In this document: positions 1,869-54,071 of the stretch, piece by piece
How the letters are laid out: each line of letters begins with the position of its first letter
How positions within the stretch are numbered: the first letter of the stretch is position 1
DNA from: Candidatus Nomurabacteria bacterium
GTDB lineage: Bacteria > Patescibacteriota > Saccharimonadia > Saccharimonadales > VXPC01
Direction of reading: 5' to 3'
Length of the DNA stretch: 64,000 nucleotides
Assembly (NCBI GenBank): GCA_020631905.1
Contig: JACKGQ010000001.1
Location: 485,854 to 549,853 of the forward strand
The notes under the pieces: generated by a model
What the model was told of the DNA's origin: nothing
The model's input: the letters and a program-made list of their open reading frames with translations, nothing else
Database searches by the model: none
Position numbers and translations under genes: made by a program

Positions 1869-4517
1869 CTAGCGTATGCTTATTTCCTGATTTTCTTGGA
1901 GCACGTCGTTTTTTTGATTTTTTTGGGCATTATTATTAATTTGTTGATGTTCGCTATTTGTACGGTTAATCGATGATTCGGTTTTCTTGTTTTTTGAACG
2001 GCTGCGCTTGCGTTTTCTTTTTGGTTTTACTACCCTAGCATCGTCGTTGCCATTGACTGCTTTAGAATCACCTAGACCTAGACCCAGAACGTTATTAATC
2101 GCCAGTTTTGCTGTACTAAGTTTGCCGTTGTTTGGTTGATCGGTTTTTGGAGTAATGTGCTTCGTATTGGTGTTCGTGTTCGTATTTTGTACAGGTTTTG
2201 AATCGTCTGTTGTGGCCGCCTGTTGGCTCTGTGTGACCATTTCTTCGACTTCTGATACCGGCTTAGCGTATGTCTGCCTAGAGTGTTCGATAATCGCACT
2301 ACTAAAATCATTTTGAGTCTCGGGGATTACTAATGTTCGTCCACTAAACGCTGGTGCTTTTTCGCCGCCAATAGTCATGGTTGTAACAAAACTACGATTC
2401 GCCAGCTGGATAATGTCTTGGGCTGTAAATTGTGGCGTGTAATACTTTTCTAGGAAAGGAGCATCGTCTGGGCTGACTCGAAATGAGACCATCGTACCAA
2501 CGTTTCCAAAAACTGCTCCGCGTACAACATCACTCATCTGAGATATATACTGGTTTGCCACGGTCAGGTTGAGGCCGTATTTGCGAGCTTCGCTTAAGAT
2601 TACCGCAAAGCTATCGGTGGCAAAGTTCTGAAATTCGTCGACGTATAAGTAGAATGGGCGTCGGTCTTCGATGCGAGGAATATCGGCACGGCTCATGGCT
2701 GCTAACTGGACTTTAGTAACCATCATTGCTCCTAAAATGGCGGCGTTATCTTCACCGATCAGGCCGCGAGATAGGTTCATAATCAGTATCTTGCCTTCAT
2801 CCATAATTTTACGGATGTTAAAGCTACCTTTCGGCTGTCCAATTATATTGCGGATCATTGGATTGGCTGTGAATGCGCCAACTTTGTTTAAGACTGGGGC
2901 GACCGCCTCGGTCGCATATTTTTCGTTCCAACTCGCAAACTCTGTTACCCAGAAATTCTTAACCACTATATCTTGAATATGATCAATAACATCTCTTCTA
3001 AAGAATTTGTCTGTCAACATGCGTGTAATATCGAGCATGGTCGAATTGGGATAATCGAGCAAAGCGAGTAATGTATAGCGCAATATATACTCAAGTCGTG
3101 GTCCCCAGGAGTCGAACATACGCTTCATAACTCCTACAAGCTCTGAGCTGATCATCCCTTTCTGGGTATTATCGTAAACCTCTAATGGGTTGAACCCGAT
3201 CGGATAGCTCGCATCGGCGGGGTTAAAGTAAACAACATCTTTAATACGGTGCTCAGGGATAAACCGCATATTATTAACGGCAAAATCGCCATGGGGATCG
3301 ATAATCGCGTAACCCTGATCGTAAAACACATCACTCAGCGCTAGTAGCTCAAGTAGTCCACTCTTGCCTGTACCGGTTTGGCCTAAGATGTAGATATGTC
3401 GTCCTCGGTCAGATCTGAGGGCGCCAAAAATCTCGTTGTGCCCGCGAAAATTAGTGACACCAAACAAGCTAATCGCACTATCGTGGTGTTTGCCCTGAGA
3501 TGGTAGATTTGCCGGTGGCTCGGCGGTTTTACTGTTTGCCCAATCAATATTGGGTGTTTCGACACTTGTGTGCGGTAAATGATATAAACTAGCGACTTCC
3601 TCGATATTTAAGATGTAGCCGTTATCTTTAAATTCGCGAGCGGCATAACTTTGTACGACCTCAGGATCGTAGCTAGTGCGTTTACTCGTAAACCCGTTTA
3701 AGTTGGTGGTATTAAACTGCTTAAACGTGCCAACCATCGCTTGTAAGCGTAAACGAGCTGTAATTTCGTTATTGCCAGCATAGATAATCCTAACCTTAAC
3801 CTGATAGCCAAGCTTTGTGCTCTTTGTCTCGATAGCACTAACTCGGCCGCGATCACGCTCGCTAAGTTGCTTCTCGCCGCCGGGCTTTTGGCTATATTCA
3901 GGAACCTTCATTGGCGCGCCTAGTATCTGGGCAATATTTGTACCAAACCCAGAGCCTCCCCCACCCTTGATTTTCTCAATCATTTTAGCGCCACGTTTAT
4001 GCCAATCATCCTGGATCGGCCTTGCGATAATCTGGATCCACATTTCTTCGTTGGGGTCGTCGAGCTTGGCTAGAGTGGCAGTCATTGCTGCCAACGGATC
4101 GACTTCGAAACTCGGAAAGGTTTTAATTGGAATAGTTTCGTTATCGGTTAAGACGAGTTCAGTACTATGAACTACGGTTTGCTGTAGTTGACGACCCGCA
4201 TAGTCTTGCTCTAGTTCTTGGATCTGAACAGATGGATACTGCGCATAAATTTGGCCTTCGACAAAACTCTGGAGTGACCGAGGTGTCCAGACATAAAAGC
4301 GAATCCGTTTATCGATTGCGGCAATCTCGAAACTGATGTGCTCTTGTTCTTCTGCCCCACCCCAGCGTTTGCGCGGACGTAAGATTCCATGTAGGGCTGC
4401 AAACATCTGTTCGGCAGCTAACTCTTTTTTATCGTTGGCTCGTGGTACCTCGAGTAACAGTAGTACACCCTCTTCCATCACAAAGACTTCCCTGCACTTT
4501 TTTGAAGGTGTAAACAC
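1869..4517 (-). CDS. Large P-loop ATPase of the TraD/VirD4/DUF87 type (type IV secretion coupling-protein-like) with a disordered basic C-terminal tail
   Basis: Walker A GQTGTGKSG, IIDPHGDF, and Walker-B-like FYLYVDEFQNF. The tail contains NTNTNTNTK and KPKRKRKRSRSKNKK. Confidence 0.6.
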   Translation of the reverse strand: MFTPSKKCREVFVMEEGVLLLLEVPRANDKKELAAEQMFAALHGILRPRKRWGGAEEQEHISFEIAAIDKRIRFYVWTPRSLQSFVEGQIYAQYPSVQIQELEQDYAGRQLQQTVVHSTELVLTDNETIPIKTFPSFEVDPLAAMTATLAKLDDPNEEMWIQIIARPIQDDWHKRGAKMIEKIKGGGGSGFGTNIAQILGAPMKVPEYSQKPGGEKQLSERDRGRVSAIETKSTKLGYQVKVRIIYAGNNEITARLRLQAMVGTFKQFNTTNLNGFTSKRTSYDPEVVQSYAAREFKDNGYILNIEEVASLYHLPHTSVETPNIDWANSKTAEPPANLPSQGKHHDSAISLFGVTNFRGHNEIFGALRSDRGRHIYILGQTGTGKSGLLELLALSDVFYDQGYAIIDPHGDFAVNNMRFIPEHRIKDVVYFNPADASYPIGFNPLEVYDNTQKGMISSELVGVMKRMFDSWGPRLEYILRYTLLALLDYPNSTMLDITRMLTDKFFRRDVIDHIQDIVVKNFWVTEFASWNEKYATEAVAPVLNKVGAFTANPMIRNIIGQPKGSFNIRKIMDEGKILIMNLSRGLIGEDNAAILGAMMVTKVQLAAMSRADIPRIEDRRPFYLYVDEFQNFATDSFAVILSEARKYGLNLTVANQYISQMSDVVRGAVFGNVGTMVSFRVSPDDAPFLEKYYTPQFTAQDIIQLANRSFVTTMTIGGEKAPAFSGRTLVIPETQNDFSSAIIEHSRQTYAKPVSEVEEMVTQSQQAATTDDSKPVQNTNTNTNTKHITPKTDQPNNGKLSTAKLAINNVLGLGLGDSKAVNGNDDARVVKPKRKRKRSRSKNKKTESSINRTNSEHQQINNNAQKNQKNDVLQENQEISIR

Positions 4518-9104: not shown

Positions 9105-9448
9105 GTAAATAGTTAATTTACTATTTATAGTACCTTATACCCCCATTCTAACATTTGTTAGGTTGATTTAGAGCGTGCCATTATGTTGCTACCCTCCACA
9201 TACTTGGCTTCTGGTTTGACCAGGAGCGTTCTAAGTCAAACTAATCCCTTTAACCACGCTTCCCCACTCGTTTTGATTGAGTTTGGTGGAAACGTACAAG
9301 CCTTCTGGTGGGCCCTTTGTTACTCTTGCGAGAAAGTAACAACCGTAGGAGCCTTCAAGGTGGGTTGAAGGGTGTATAGATTGGCCCGAAGCTTTCGGGT
9401 CATGTAAAGAGCCTGCAGCGGTGCCCACCCCCTCTGCAGGCTCTTTTT
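9105..9448 (+). ncRNA. Candidate ~340-nt structured RNA of unknown class
   Basis: Bounded by its own promoter and an intrinsic terminator. Contains at least 7 consecutive perfect hairpins of 6-8 bp (e.g. GTTTGAC/GTCAAAC, TTGTTACT/AGTAACAA, CCTTCAA/TTGAAGG, GCCCGAA/TTCGGGT). The only ORF (61 aa, 9183-9368) has no RBS and its composition does not look protein-like. Confidence 0.35.
9408..9448 (+). terminator. Intrinsic terminator
   Basis: 11-bp stem AGAGCCTGCAG/CTGCAGGCTCT, 15-nt loop, followed by TTTTT. Confidence 0.75.
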
Positions 9449-9688
9449 ATGTTTAATCTAACTCTAGCAACAGGTTTCTGATATTTACCAGAGTAATTGA
9501 TAATTATGTGCAATTTGATAACCAATAGTTACTACTAACCAGTTTTGCTTTCTATGCCATCGGCTAAACCTTAAAACATTTGTAATCATGCAACAATATG
9601 GTACAATATGTGGGCTATTCTCAATTCACGTTGAGACTCCTGATGGGAAAGCCTCATTGGAGTATTTGGTAGCAAGGGAGGGTCAGTA

Positions 9689-10279
9689 ATGACCCAGAAT
9701 CTTTCGGATCTACAAGTTGATCCGCGGTTGTTAAGCACGCTGGCAGAGATGCTCAAGCGGATTGGCAACGGCGGTCTCGACTCGCGTGTTGCGGCTGTGC
9801 ATCTTCAGGCCTTGCTCGAAGGCAAGCCTTCGAGTGAATCTTCGTTGGCCGATAGCGCGGTCGGCAAGTGGGAGGGAGTTGTCGTGACTGAGAGCTTTCT
9901 GAGCCAGACGATGGTTTATAAGGGCCAGCTGCTCAAGCGCCACCGAAATGGTGGTGGCTGGGTGCCGGCCGAGCAGTCGGAGGGCGATGAGTCGAAGCCT
10001 TATGTGGACGAAACGGCCTATGTCGGCCCGTTTGCGATGGTCTTCGGCAACGCTCGAGTCTTCGGCAACGCTTTGGTCTGCGGCAACGCTCGAGTCTTCG
10101 GCAACGCTCGAGTCTTCGGCAACGCTTTGGTCTGCGGCAACGCTGAGGTCTCCGGTGAAGCTCGAGTCTCCGGCAACGCTCGAATCTCCGACAACGCTCG
10201 AGTCTGCGGCAACGCTCGAGTCTTCGGCAACGCTGGGGTCTCCGGTGGAACTAGTCTCGAAACTGGCTCTCACGGCTAG
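9689..10279 (+). CDS. Left-handed beta-helix (hexapeptide-repeat) protein, YdcK-like
   Basis: RBS AGGGAGG. Eleven consecutive hexapeptides of the GNARVF/GNALVC type follow a GGGWV...YVDETAYV lead-in. About 60% GC against a ~45% backbone. Confidence 0.6.
   Translation: MTQNLSDLQVDPRLLSTLAEMLKRIGNGGLDSRVAAVHLQALLEGKPSSESSLADSAVGKWEGVVVTESFLSQTMVYKGQLLKRHRNGGGWVPAEQSEGDESKPYVDETAYVGPFAMVFGNARVFGNALVCGNARVFGNARVFGNALVCGNAEVSGEARVSGNARISDNARVCGNARVFGNAGVSGGTSLETGSHG
10046..10243. repeat. Tandem array of 11 x 18 bp (in-frame hexapeptide units), with a near-perfect higher-order duplication
   Basis: Unit GGCAACGCTCGAGTCTTC. Several units are identical at the DNA level, and the block cttcggcaacgctcgagtcttcggcaacgctttggtctgcggcaacgct occurs twice. 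Confidence 0.9.
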
Positions 10280-44185: not shown

Positions 44186-44251
44186 AAAAAACGAGAAAAC
44201 CCCGAGCCCTGCGAGAGGGCGCGGGGCTCTCGATCGCAGAAGCTCGGGGTT
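44186..44251 (-). terminator. GC-rich compound hairpin plus T-run after the GC-rich ORF
   Basis: On the minus strand: AACCCCGAGC...GCTCGGGGTT enclosing GCCCT-GCGAG-AGGGC, then TTTCTCGTTTTTTT. Confidence 0.65.
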
Positions 44252-44670
44252 CAGGTGGTGGCCAACGATTCTGGAAACGTCTTGAGGCCACCGAGCGCAA
44301 TTACGCTGCACGACCGGCGTCGGTAAACACCGGCGGACTCGCTACTTCCGGCCATGATGAAAACCATGAATTCGGGCACGTCATCGATTGCCACTCCCGT
44401 CTGTTCGAGGCAGGACGCGACCAACCCTTCCATCATCGGCAACGTGCTGAGCGCCCAGCGCTGATCACGCAACTCCTTGCCGAAGTCGAACCGAACGCAC
44501 AAGGGTGTGTGTTCGGGGTCCGGCAACTGCCACTCGAGCAGGGCGATACTGACTTGTTCACCCGGCGACACGTGCGTGCTGTTCGCCAACATGCCCGGGA
44601 GCTTCTCGAAAAGCTTTGCGAGCACGCCTTCATCCATCACGGCCGGCGTCATCGAAATGTACACTTCCAT
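44251..44670 (-). CDS. GC-rich hypothetical protein (139 aa, MEVYISMTPAVMDEG...)
   Basis: RBS AAAGAGGA. About 60% GC with GC3-rich codons. An AT-rich, backbone-type promoter (TTGCAA-18-TATAAT) lies upstream. Confidence 0.6.
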   Translation of the reverse strand: MEVYISMTPAVMDEGVLAKLFEKLPGMLANSTHVSPGEQVSIALLEWQLPDPEHTPLCVRFDFGKELRDQRWALSTLPMMEGLVASCLEQTGVAIDDVPEFMVFIMAGSSESAGVYRRRSCSVIALGGLKTFPESLATT

Positions 44671-44838
44671 GTTGTCCTCTTTCGGGTCGCAGGCATTTGC
44701 CCACACCTCCCACCATGAGAGATAACCATATTATACAATAATTGCTACAGTTATTGCAACTTGTTATTTCACTGTTTCGATCTTTAAAAATTGTTTGTGG
44801 TTATAAGTAGATGATTTCGAGGTAACGCATAGGCTGGG

Positions 44839-51491: not shown

Positions 51492-51996
51492 CCGCTTCGG
51501 CGCTTGCAGATGCATCCCTAAACTCTTGACTCCGACCATGCGGAAATACCAGGTACGCTTTGCTATAACCTTGGCGGATTAGCTCTAGATTGACATCTAG
51601 ATCGTCGCTGGCTCGAACCACATAACGCAATAGTCGGCCATAAATGTCTCGGTTGCTACTACTGGCGTCAGCTAGCAAGCGGACTCTTTGCCCAGTCAGT
51701 AAGCTAGTTGTAAAGTCACTGGCTTCCGGGCCGTAGCATTGGACGGGAGTATTAGGTTTGTGGGTTTCGGGCGTATCGACACCAATAAATCGAACTTTCT
51801 CGGGGGTACCATCCATTAATACCTCGATAGTATCGCCGTCGTAGATGTTCAGCACAAGGTATGTATCGCTGCTGGCAATGTCTTGACCTAGCGTCGCGCG
51901 GGAGACATGATCGACAACATAAGTCAGGCAGATAACCAGCAAAGCCAAGAGTAATTTATAGATTAGCTTTTTTAGCTGCTTGGTTGTTTTCACCAA
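51460..51996 (-). CDS. Thermonuclease (staphylococcal-nuclease fold), secreted or anchored
   Basis: An N-terminal TM/signal helix, then VRFIGVDTPET and YGRLLRYV motifs. Confidence 0.8.
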   Translation of the reverse strand: MVKTTKQLKKLIYKLLLALLVICLTYVVDHVSRATLGQDIASSDTYLVLNIYDGDTIEVLMDGTPEKVRFIGVDTPETHKPNTPVQCYGPEASDFTTSLLTGQRVRLLADASSSNRDIYGRLLRYVVRASDDLDVNLELIRQGYSKAYLVFPHGRSQEFRDASASAEAARVGLWSACD

Positions 51997-52126
51997 AGCA
52001 TATTATCAACAACCGCGAGCTAAAGCACGCGGCTTGTTGGAAATTAGCCCTTGCATACTGTAGTCTGCAATGTCGCCGCTTGGCGACAAATGCCAACGAC
52101 TTAGCGGTCGTTGGCGAGCGCGAATT

Positions 52127-52159
52127 ATAAACGAAAAGACCGCCCAATAAAGGACGGTC
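52127..52159 (-). terminator. Intrinsic terminator ending the GC-rich unit
   Basis: On the minus strand: GACCGTCC-TTTATT-GGGCGGTC followed by TTTTCGTTTAT. One pair is G.U on the minus strand only. Confidence 0.6.
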
Positions 52160-52423
52160 GAATGTTGTTCGTAGGGAGCGAGGCTCAACCGTACGAACTG
52201 CTCTAACTCGAGCAAACGGAGATCTAATTTAGATCAATCAACGTTCGCGAGGAGCGTTGCTAGCAACATTTTCGGGTTTCCCCCGAGGGCGGCTGGCTGG
52301 TCCGCCGGAGCAGACCAGCCAGCCGCAGGCACCACCTCGCAGGAGAGAGGTAGGTGTTAAAACGACGCGTGATTGGCCCCCCAGGCCCACACCAAACATC
52401 GTTAGTTGTGCCGCCCGACACAC

Positions 52424-52640
52424 TCAATTGGCTACCGCTATGGGTCGCCCGATACGGGTGGCAATTTGCCGGCACTTCTTGCGAAGTCCGGAGAGTTTGG
52501 GGAGCAAGTCGCCGGGCGGCATACTCCCCTCTAGAAAAATCTCTTGAGGGCTGTCGGTAAGTTTGTCCAGGCCGGCGATTATGCCAACCAACTGCGAATG
52601 GCGCAGGGTTCCTCCGATGCATTCTCCGTGAGCTTTTTTC
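52424..52640 (-). pseudogene. Protein-like reading frame without a start codon (…GGTLRHSQLVGIIAGLDKLTDSPQEIFLEGSMPPGDLLPKLSGLRKKCRQIATRIGRPIAVAN*), apparently frame-shifted at an A6 run
   Basis: The upstream frame reads TERRKRYDDLLEK and switches frame at GAAAAAAGC (about 52633-52640). There is no ATG, GTG or TTG in either frame upstream. Confidence 0.3.
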
Positions 52641-53163
52641 CAGAAGGTCGTCGTAGCGCTTCCGCCGTTCAGTCTGCAGGACGTCTGCTAGGTTCCGAGC
52701 TGGGCTCGAATCCTAGGTCTTAGACCCCGCAACCAGTGAACCTTGGTTTGCCTATTAGTCGACGACCCAGATCTGTCGGTTCTCGTGAAAGAACCGACGC
52801 GGGTCATTTCTCCCCGTGAATCGATCGGCGCGACCCAGTGGCATTGGGTGCGGTTGACAGCCGCATGCCACTGGGTCGACTTCAGATGTACGCCATCTGT
52901 CTCCATGCCGAGTTGCCTCGGTACAACTCTTGCGAGCTGCAGCGTCAGAGCCGTACGCCCTGTGCTTACGTTTTGGGTGTCAATCCAACTATAAGCGATT
53001 CGACTGGTTCGGAGTGCGCGTTCCCTTGGCTTAACCTAGCCAGTCGAATTGTCACGTCGGTGCCGCAGGATCGTATGTGCTGCGGGCCGTGCGTCGACGT
53101 ATCGGTACCAAGTTGCCTTGGCTACCGATCGTGGCCAACATTGCTGCTGGCCTTCTCGAGTTG

Positions 53164-53391
53164 CTACGTGTTGCCACGCAACCTCTCTATTGTGTGGAGC
53201 TTAGCCCCAGCGACCTTGCCCCCGAGCAGCCAACACGGCGTACTCGAGGGTTTGGGGAAGGTTCCCCGCGTCCGGCAGGATGCCGGTGAGCGGTTTGAGA
53301 CGGGAATGTTTTGGTACCTTCCTTGCAGGCGGAGCTGGCGAGGGTCCAACGCCCTCCGCTCCTTGGTGATGCGGGTGAACGCATCGTTCAC
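53164..53391 (-). pseudogene. Small ORF with a perfect RBS whose GC3 signal changes frame midway (frameshifted gene?)
   Basis: AAGGAGGTGAACG-ATG. It starts MNDAFTRITKERRALDPRQLRL in a GC3-rich frame. After a low-GC patch (ggaaggtaccaaaaca) the protein-like, GC3-rich frame is the next one (KPLTGILPDAGNLPQTLEYAVLAARGQGRWG*, stop at 53201-53203). Confidence 0.35.
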
Positions 53392-53416
53392 CTCCTTGCC
53401 TTTCGATCGTCGTCGG

Positions 53417-53566
53417 CTAGGAGGTGATGGTGGTGCCGCCGGCGGCGGCGTTCATCAGGGCCGGCTCGGTGTGCGTGGTGTCCGCACCACCGATGTCGAC
53501 GTCGGTGCGACATGCGACGATGTTCTGGCCCTGGAGGGCGGCCGTCTGGCCGCTCTTGGTTCGCAT
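53417..53566 (-). CDS. 49-aa GC-rich mini-ORF (MRTKSGQTAALQGQNIVACRTDVDIGGADTTHTEPALMNAAAGGTTITS)
   Basis: RBS GGAGAGAGGA lies about 8 nt upstream. 45 of 49 codons end in G or C, a strong coding signal of high-GC type. Confidence 0.45.
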   Translation of the reverse strand: MRTKSGQTAALQGQNIVACRTDVDIGGADTTHTEPALMNAAAGGTTITS

Positions 53567-54071
53567 CTGGTGTTTCCTCTCTCCCCCGGAGGGGGTTGGC
53601 GGAAGCCGGTGCTTCACCCATTGGGATGACCCGCAGGGTTCGACTTGGACTTACCTTTGCAGGTGTCCCCAAGTCTACCTCGACGTTTCTTACCTGAAGT
53701 GTACGCGTCGGGGTTGGGTTGCCTTTACGGCGGATACTACACACCAAGATGTGTACTATTCGCCGCAAAGACTTATTAGCCAAACGGCTAAAGATGTTGC
53801 TAGCTTGTTAAACAACATAAGTGTGGTCTGCTTAGTCTGCGTGATTAAATTTGAATTGTCTCGCAAGTTAAGTGATGTACTTCACACTTAAGTGGGTTAG
53901 AATTTACACAATCTTCAAATATTTGTCAACATTATTTTCATAAAATCAACATATGGTGTCATAAAACTGCTTGAAACGCTAGATGTGTTGATTTTTACAA
54001 TCTTTTATTGACGCAAGAACTTTCAACAAAATTTAGCTTAGTTTAAACTGTCTCCAATTTGGAGGGTAGCA

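Follow-up and report, generated by a model that had tools for sequence, protein, structure and literature searches.

A GC-rich island beside a thermonuclease gene of Saccharibacteria: a candidate gene for a long structured RNA that also encodes a peptide

What does a long, GC-rich tract encode when hardly any of it reads like protein? The question is raised by an island at positions 52127–53783 of a 64,000-nucleotide (nt) stretch of contig JACKGQ010000001.1 (assembly GCA_020631905.1, positions 485,854 to 549,853), from a Candidatus Nomurabacteria bacterium of the Saccharimonadales. This whole stretch is called the window here, and positions given without a locus name refer to it. The identical contig also occurs in run SRR12358676. 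The island has a GC content of 58.7%, compared with 46.1% for the whole window, peaks at 65.7% in 300-nt intervals and is the longest high-GC stretch of the 64 kb. An initial annotation had rightly picked out the GC-richness (although 40, not 41, of the 60 positions at 53401–53460 are G or C) and had left the choice between a large structured RNA carrying mini-open reading frames (ORFs), a plasmid or phage remnant, and decaying foreign DNA. The reading favored here, to which we give about an even chance on the sequence evidence, is that the island is a gene in its own right, restricted to a small subclade of Saccharibacteria, whose product would be a long structured RNA that doubles as the mRNA of a peptide.

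The predicted transcription unit would run on the minus strand from about 53894 to 52129, a length of about 1.75 kb; its parts, read on that strand and numbered in window coordinates, are collected in Table 1. Two full homologues were compared with it. Locus L005 (Logan run SRR17161167) has a high-GC island of about 0.9 kb in the same place, flanked by a ParB-like protein and an SNase thermonuclease that are 48% (BLASTP) and 60% identical, respectively, to those of the window. Locus L052 (SRR24874945) has an island of about 1.2 kb directly upstream of an SNase gene whose product is 52% identical to that of the window. Its upstream neighbor is a different gene, and the ParB-like gene is found on another contig, L002, which probably comes from the same genome. 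A 1.2-kb contig, L173, ends inside a GC-rich stretch upstream of its SNase gene. This stretch includes a GCUCCCUCGC motif and a terminator, and the contig is a possible fourth example.

Flanking-protein identity among the three full loci is only 46–60% (46–52% for the ParB-like proteins, 60% and 52% for the SNases). At such distances, neutral DNA would be randomized and would drift to 42–47% GC. Instead, the three lineages keep about 60% GC, the hairpins, the ends and the micro-ORF, which argues for selection. The islands lie at 58–65% GC in genomes of about 45% GC, which likewise points to selection and not to recent import. The parts that are kept are the promoter, a 5′ hairpin, the small ORF, a 3′ module and the terminator, and it is this set that gives substance to the earlier option of a large structured RNA with mini-ORFs.

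The 5′ end begins with a putative sigma-70-type promoter. Its equivalents are TTGACA-18-TATTTT with an upstream TG in L005, and TTGACA (267–272) followed by GTAATT in L052. The weak promoter that had been proposed at 53755–53783 overlaps the conserved 5′ hairpin and gives way to this one, the sole good sigma-70 match, which lies about 120–145 nt upstream. The leader that follows is AT-rich at all three loci, about 75–120 nt long, and contains GTGTGA. An alignment of the leader region between the window (54001–53870) and L005 (3810–3673) gave a score of 37.5, equal to the top of 30 shuffles (null mean 29.6), and is thus borderline. The two-part 5′ hairpin is found again at 381–429 in L052 and at 3620–3577 in L005, with stem sequences that differ and pairing that is kept. 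It is followed by AAAGGCAMC in all three loci, and a C-run/G-run hairpin stands directly 5′ of a purine run resembling a Shine–Dalgarno (SD) site in each of them. With relaxed scoring, blastn aligns the window with L052 in the 5′ region (E = 2e-8) and at the 3′ end (E = 5e-11).

The small ORF sits at the same relative position in the three loci and encodes 42 amino acids (aa) in L052 and 33 in L005. In the window, its GC content at the three codon positions is 0.59, 0.59 and 0.90, where native genes have a third-position value (GC3) of 0.43–0.49. GC3 of the ORF is 0.93 in L052 and 0.82 in L005, and the overall range for native genes is 0.35–0.49. The three peptides share [SD]G..A, a hydrophobic patch and [RH].D.D[IS]G, and the codons for GGAD differ between the window and L005 at synonymous sites only. 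No Pfam family matches any of the three. Judged by these patterns, the small ORF looks like a real coding sequence. Its third positions have been driven to G or C while the first and second are normal, suggesting that the whole transcript is selected for GC-rich pairing with a coding constraint overlaid.

Outside this ORF, the island is indeed poor in coding sequence, as had been claimed. Codon-position GC periodicity, a check that had been proposed at the outset, is confined to 53340–53610, where the small ORF sits; this ORF, which does read like protein, had not been singled out in the initial annotation. At least 10 stop codons had been counted across the three minus-strand frames between 52700 and 53190, and there are 16, spread unevenly (7, 8 and 1). 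A second small ORF of 65 codons at 53187–53384 on the minus strand lies behind a perfect SD sequence, AAGGAGGTGA. Its GC3 is not raised and it has no counterpart in L052 or L005, so that it is probably not a conserved gene, and its strong SD could act as a ribosome-binding decoy.

The interior, between the small ORF and the 3′ end, is of a different nature. It is about 1155, 768 and 612 nt long in the window, L052 and L005, respectively, has 57–65% GC, is poor in T on the sense strand, and is full of near-perfect hairpins of 10–17 bp. Among those of the window are two 8-bp stems, one of 10 bp and one of 14 bp with another hairpin inside it, and the local folding z-scores there reach −7.9. The stems first listed are present and fully Watson–Crick (12/12, 14/14, 10/10 and 8/8 pairs), as are the CCGAG-GCAA-CTCGG hairpin and the bulged stem at 52688–52716. 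The 12-bp stem turns out to be the core of a 17-bp stem with one G·U pair at 52326–52289. A hairpin in this place, just before the 3′ module, is also found in L052 (16 bp, 1427–1463) and L005 (13 bp, 2803–2772), with unrelated sequences. Among the three islands, shared interior 8- to 10-mers are at the level of shuffled sequence and 7-mers marginally above it, and nhmmer searches with single islands against all collected loci returned only self matches.

For the 3′ module of about 130 nt, RNAalifold predicts 33 pairs, 8 of which are kept through changes on both sides, and a helix-by-helix comparison shows stem sequences that differ between loci with pairing retained. The 3′-terminal 219 nt of the window (52345–52127) fold with a z-score of −8.5, and a covariance model of the module, R1, finds exactly one copy in the window. 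Each full locus has two or more copies of the motif GCUCCY in this module. A comparison of homologous loci had been suggested with the first description; in two relatives the end helices keep their pairing, and the interior cannot be aligned. The intrinsic terminator that had been noticed is placed by a terminator scan at 52159–52138 on the minus strand, and has equivalents at 2623–2603 in L005 and, as a 9-bp stem at 1571–1594 followed by UUUUCGCGUUU, in L052.

Folding of the island as a whole goes beyond its composition. The z-score of the minimum free energy (MFE), averaged over 150-nt windows, falls to −3.3 for the minus strand of the island and to −2.2 for its plus strand, whereas the flanks average about −1. 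Counting perfect hairpins with a stem of at least 8 bp and a loop of 3–10 nt gives 3 for the window, 8 for L052 and 4 for L005; dinucleotide shuffles contain about 0.13 on average, and none of 300 reaches the observed count.

Table 1. Predicted parts of the transcription unit and the gene downstream of it, in window coordinates
Feature	Position	Strand	Basis
Sigma-70-type promoter, TTGACA-17-TAAATT	53901..53929	-	Consensus scan, 10/12 matches; sole good match
Predicted transcription start	near 53894	-	Inferred from promoter
AT-rich 5′ leader with YTWRGTGTGA motif (GTGTGA 53887-53882)	53773..53894	-	Read from sequences
Long 5′ hairpin: outer stem GCGGCG...CGCCGT, inner ATAGTACACA/TGTGTAGTAT, then AAAGGCAAC	53718..53766	-	
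CCCCC-UCC-GGGGG hairpin running into Shine–Dalgarno region GGAGAGAGGAAA	53571..53595	-	
Small ORF, 49 codons, MRTKSGQTAALQGQNIVACRTDVDIGGADTTHTEPALMNAAAGGTTITS	53417..53566	-	GC periodicity, SD site, ATG
Variable GC-rich interior, hairpin chain	52327..53416	-	Unalignable among loci
17-bp hairpin, one G·U pair, UCCG loop	52289..52326	-	Just 5′ of 3′ module
3′ multi-helix module: CGCUCCUYGC; P1 (52248-52212) around P1a; P2 (52198-52167) around GGUUGAGC...GCUCC	52160..52262	-	
Intrinsic terminator GACCGUCC-UUUAUU-GGGCGGUC, then UUUUCGUUU	52129..52159	-	Terminator scan
Downstream SNase thermonuclease gene, N-terminal hydrophobic segment	51460..51996	-	Pfam SNase, E=1.9e-21

Several observations weigh against a long structured RNA. 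The long stems are mostly perfect Watson–Crick helices with no strand asymmetry of G·U versus A·C (4 vs. 5), and the MFE of the whole island is about equal on both strands, the antisense being the more stable in L052. Because of the perfect palindromes and the equal folding of the strands, pairing alone proves neither RNA-level structure nor strand; for these, the support comes from the promoter, the terminator, the ORF and the window-level z-scores. The interior has no alignable core, unlike the known large ornate RNAs: OLE, GOLLD, ROOL, HEARO and raiA have conserved cores. The conserved, CU-rich GCUCCY motifs are mostly predicted to be paired, which would leave them unavailable for binding to SD sequences, with a mean unpaired probability of 0.01–0.15 in the window and L052 and 0.27–0.68 in L005. 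A long-range pairing predicted on the minus strand between 53587–53564, the SD and start region of the small ORF, and the CCUCUCUCC segment about 1.2 kb downstream (52367–52341; probability about 0.59) is seen in the window only and is absent from L052 and L005. The compensatory changes come from three full sequences, too few for a significance test of the R-scape type. Finally, R1 missed L173 and gave no further copy, and L173 is therefore kept as a possible case only.

The island matches no Rfam family. At gathering thresholds, the 4227 models of Rfam 15 find two tRNAs in the whole window and nothing else, and permissive searches of the three islands (E up to 5–10) gave sub-threshold noise of the hairpin or microRNA type, none of it common to the loci. 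This agrees with the first impression that the island is not an rRNA, tmRNA, RNase P RNA or group II intron. A tmRNA search of the window with ARAGORN was negative, and the small ORF opens with an ATG behind an SD site, unlike a tag frame. No further copy was found in the 64 kb by motif, blastn or covariance-model searches. Repeats within the island are the arms of its own hairpins only, and elsewhere in the window there is one 17-nt match at chance level (E = 1.5). A search of genome contigs with the ParB-like protein gave no locus, and one with an alignment of it gave a single locus that was already in the set. The DNA pattern TTGCGG.CGAATAGTA had 40 chance matches in viral contigs, none with a second motif, and a pattern for the 3′ module had at least 120 matches in metagenome contigs, of which all those listed are unrelated GC-rich coding sequence. 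In the literature, no published description of a large non-coding RNA (ncRNA) from this phylum was found.

The neighbor that matters appears to be the SNase gene. In the window, L005 and L052, and probably in L173, it follows the island directly and on the same strand. The thermonuclease named in the initial annotation is confirmed by its Pfam match (Table 1), whereas the HTH_ParB score of the divergent ParB-like neighbor is 20.6 bits, under the cut-off of 22.6. The island is absent at the other ParB-like loci L003, L004, L007 and L009. Since it occurs with the SNase gene always and with the ParB-like gene only sometimes, the element tracks the former, within a small subclade. The spacer of about 130 nt between the terminator and the SNase start (51925–52130, minus strand) is itself strongly structured (z = −3.9 to −4.9), with hairpins CCAACGAC/GTCGTTGG and TGTCGCC/GGCGACA.

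This constant position makes it conceivable that the island is no gene of its own but a giant leader that acts in cis on the SNase gene, where a leader peptide, the hairpins and the 3′ module with its terminator would form an attenuator of read-through. On balance we consider this unlikely, but it stays a serious rival because the element always precedes SNase. An upstream small ORF and a conserved structured domain with an intrinsic terminator before a gene on the same strand are the classic layout of attenuators and riboswitch leaders, and the SNases with an island or possible island (P0008, P0009, P0010 and P0020) are among each other's closest relatives, together with the island-less P0011 (L051). 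However, the SNase genes of the window, L052 and L173 lack an SD site, and a −10-like element precedes their start codon by 5–10 nt; in the window, the GTG or TTG start follows a GATAAT box by 5–8 nt. Such an arrangement suggests that SNase is expressed from a separate, leaderless mRNA. Moreover, related SNase genes do without the island (L051, L007, L174/L175 and L176/L177), no antiterminator pairing was identified, and a length of 1.1–1.75 kb is about ten times that typical of such leaders; we know of no leader as long as this. Another view, which we hold to be improbable, is that high-GC DNA from an actinobacterial host, a plasmid or a phage has been kept as a DNA-level element, with palindromes that bind protein, an origin of transfer (oriT) or single-strand origin, or a centromere for the ParB-like protein. 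The 58–65% GC, the actinobacterial-style GC3 of about 0.9 in the small ORF, the palindromes without strand asymmetry, and the weak HTH_ParB gene that is the divergent neighbor in the window and L005 would all fit. Yet blastn in distant mode against 50,697 phage and 72,556 plasmid records gave no match, the island contains no repeated motif resembling parS and has no repeat elsewhere in the window, the L052 island is not next to the ParB-like gene, five ParB-like loci lack the island, and there is no mobility or replication gene nearby. The plasmid or phage remnant with an ori, oriT or centromere that was first entertained is thus hard to uphold. Position, ends and small ORF are the same at 46–60% flanking identity, with interiors that are unrelated, and decaying foreign DNA, the other suggestion of that kind, would have lost its place, its ends and its GC content of about 60% in lineages so far apart.

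A non-autonomous mobile element with structured end hairpins and non-coding cargo, comparable to palindrome-associated (PATE) or miniature inverted-repeat (MITE) transposable elements, would account for conserved, structured ends around an interior of variable length and sequence. It is nevertheless very improbable, as there is a single copy in 64 kb, the chromosomal site is the same in all loci, unlike the case of PATEs of the IS200/IS605 type, neither a transposase nor a target-site duplication was seen, and the ends include a promoter and a terminator. The dense, near-perfect intergenic GC-rich palindromes are also reminiscent of repetitive extragenic palindromes (REPs) and their clusters (bacterial interspersed mosaic elements, BIMEs), but those of the island are unique and unrepeated in the window, and the region that holds them also has a promoter, a small ORF and end modules that are both unique and conserved. 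Least probable of all is that the island codes for protein on one strand or the other, in a gene broken by frameshifts or written in an alternative genetic code. On the minus strand, one frame is interrupted by only 7 stops over 1.4 kb, and an ORF of 263 aa is open on the plus strand, antisense to the island. The stops of that minus-strand frame, however, mix TAA, TAG and TGA. Periodicity is lacking outside the small ORF, Pfam found no island domain among 18 ORFs and long open segments, and tblastx between the islands found no shared ORF except the small one. In an exhaustive HMMER search of 1.84 billion cluster representatives, the 263-aa ORF matched only an 86-aa ORF called within it in this same genome and a repetitive artefact, and so has no independent homologue there. 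The protein-coding reading is already close to refuted.

The architecture, together with the conserved promoter and terminator, makes a discrete, stable structured RNA with a peptide the most economical reading. The closest known RNA in layout is RNAIII of Staphylococcus (RF00503), a dual-function RNA whose 3′ domain is the most conserved (PMC2837412, PMC11237564). Like RNAIII, the island has its own (here predicted) promoter and terminator, a small ORF led by an SD near the 5′ end, which is hld in RNAIII, and many hairpins. In RNAIII it is the 3′ domain that is most conserved; in the island it is the two ends and not the middle. There is no homology between the two (none by Rfam), the island RNA would be 2–3.5 times the 514 nt of RNAIII, it is GC-rich in a mid-GC genome, and the predicted folds do not leave its CU-rich motifs unpaired. 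Structured ncRNAs are known to be enriched in the long GC-rich intergenic regions of AT-richer genomes (PMC6429828, PMC11109978). The island resembles OLE, GOLLD, ROOL, HEARO and raiA as a long, GC-rich, ORF-poor intergenic region that folds far beyond its composition, the signature by which those classes were discovered (PMC6429828, PMC11109978). It differs from them in that none of the 4227 Rfam models match, that only its ends are conserved, and that it contains a small ORF.

If the island is such a stand-alone RNA gene, transcription would proceed from the conserved sigma-70-type promoter to the intrinsic terminator, and the same RNA would serve as mRNA for a peptide of 33–49 residues, with the SD site placed just 3′ of the C-run/G-run hairpin. 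The 5′ hairpin and the 3′ module of about 130 nt would be specific structures under selection, and the 0.6–1.15-kb interior would be constrained only to be rich in GC and in strong hairpins. Such packing might shield a long, mostly untranslated transcript from Rho and ribonucleases. Given the RNAIII-like layout, the mode of action ranked first is that of a dual-function RNA: it would encode the peptide, and its 3′ domain may be riboregulatory or bind protein. A functional tie to the adjacent secreted nuclease is conceivable; a duplex search between the island and the SNase 5′ region was uninformative.

The wider neighborhood consists of housekeeping genes, for SmpB, a GH42-like protein, a GT2 glycosyltransferase, SNase, CobA and a prephenate dehydrogenase-like protein, in an order that is kept in relatives. 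Gene content between the glycosyltransferase and the ParB-like gene varies strongly in this clade (L003 4543–7289; L004 3780–7897; L007 6137–7006), and in place of the island this hotspot holds, in other genomes, a zeta-toxin-like kinase, an HxlR-type regulator, a baeRF-family protein, a CAP-domain protein, or a 289-aa membrane protein. The idea that the island is a pseudogene of one of the genes found at this site in relatives was rejected, as tblastn was negative. In L007, patches of about 62% GC at 901–1300 and 1601–2100, with equivalents in L008, correspond to a 108-aa ORF and a phage Mu Gam-like gene beside smpB, which suggests separate imports of high-GC DNA into the neighborhood.

Elsewhere in the window, another short patch of about 62% GC (44201–44700) overlaps a 151-aa minus-strand ORF with no Pfam match. 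A 286-nt intergenic region on the plus strand at 9165–9450 folds with a z-score of −6.6 (200 shuffles) and closes with a strong terminator-like hairpin followed by a T run. Its best Rfam hit, Thr_leader (E = 0.48), is far below threshold, and it may be another unclassified structured RNA. Close to it, at 9689–10279 on the plus strand, an ORF of 196 aa with 55–60% GC and tandem repeats of the GNARVFGNA type matches the Pfam YdcK beta-solenoid (E = 7e-16); it overlaps a spurious antisense ORF of 253 aa, and its composition looks foreign.

One may go further and imagine a new class of large (1.1–1.8 kb) dual-function RNA specific to epibiotic Saccharibacteria, in which the GC enrichment, the actinobacterial-style codons of the ORF and the nuclease-resistant packing would serve joint work with the secreted nuclease at the host interface, perhaps inside the actinobacterial host. 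This we offer as speculation and think very unlikely. The genomes of Saccharibacteria, and of Patescibacteria generally, are tiny, so that a non-coding locus of 1.1–1.8 kb that persists across deeply diverged lineages is unlikely to be without a role. Should the transcript be real, it would join the few very long structured RNAs of bacteria as a new family. Its layout would be unusual, as the structured ends are conserved, a micro-ORF is present, and the interior of hairpins changes fast yet is always GC-rich. The fixed place of the element beside a secreted nuclease gene may offer a handle on how nucleotides are scavenged or how epibiont and host interact.

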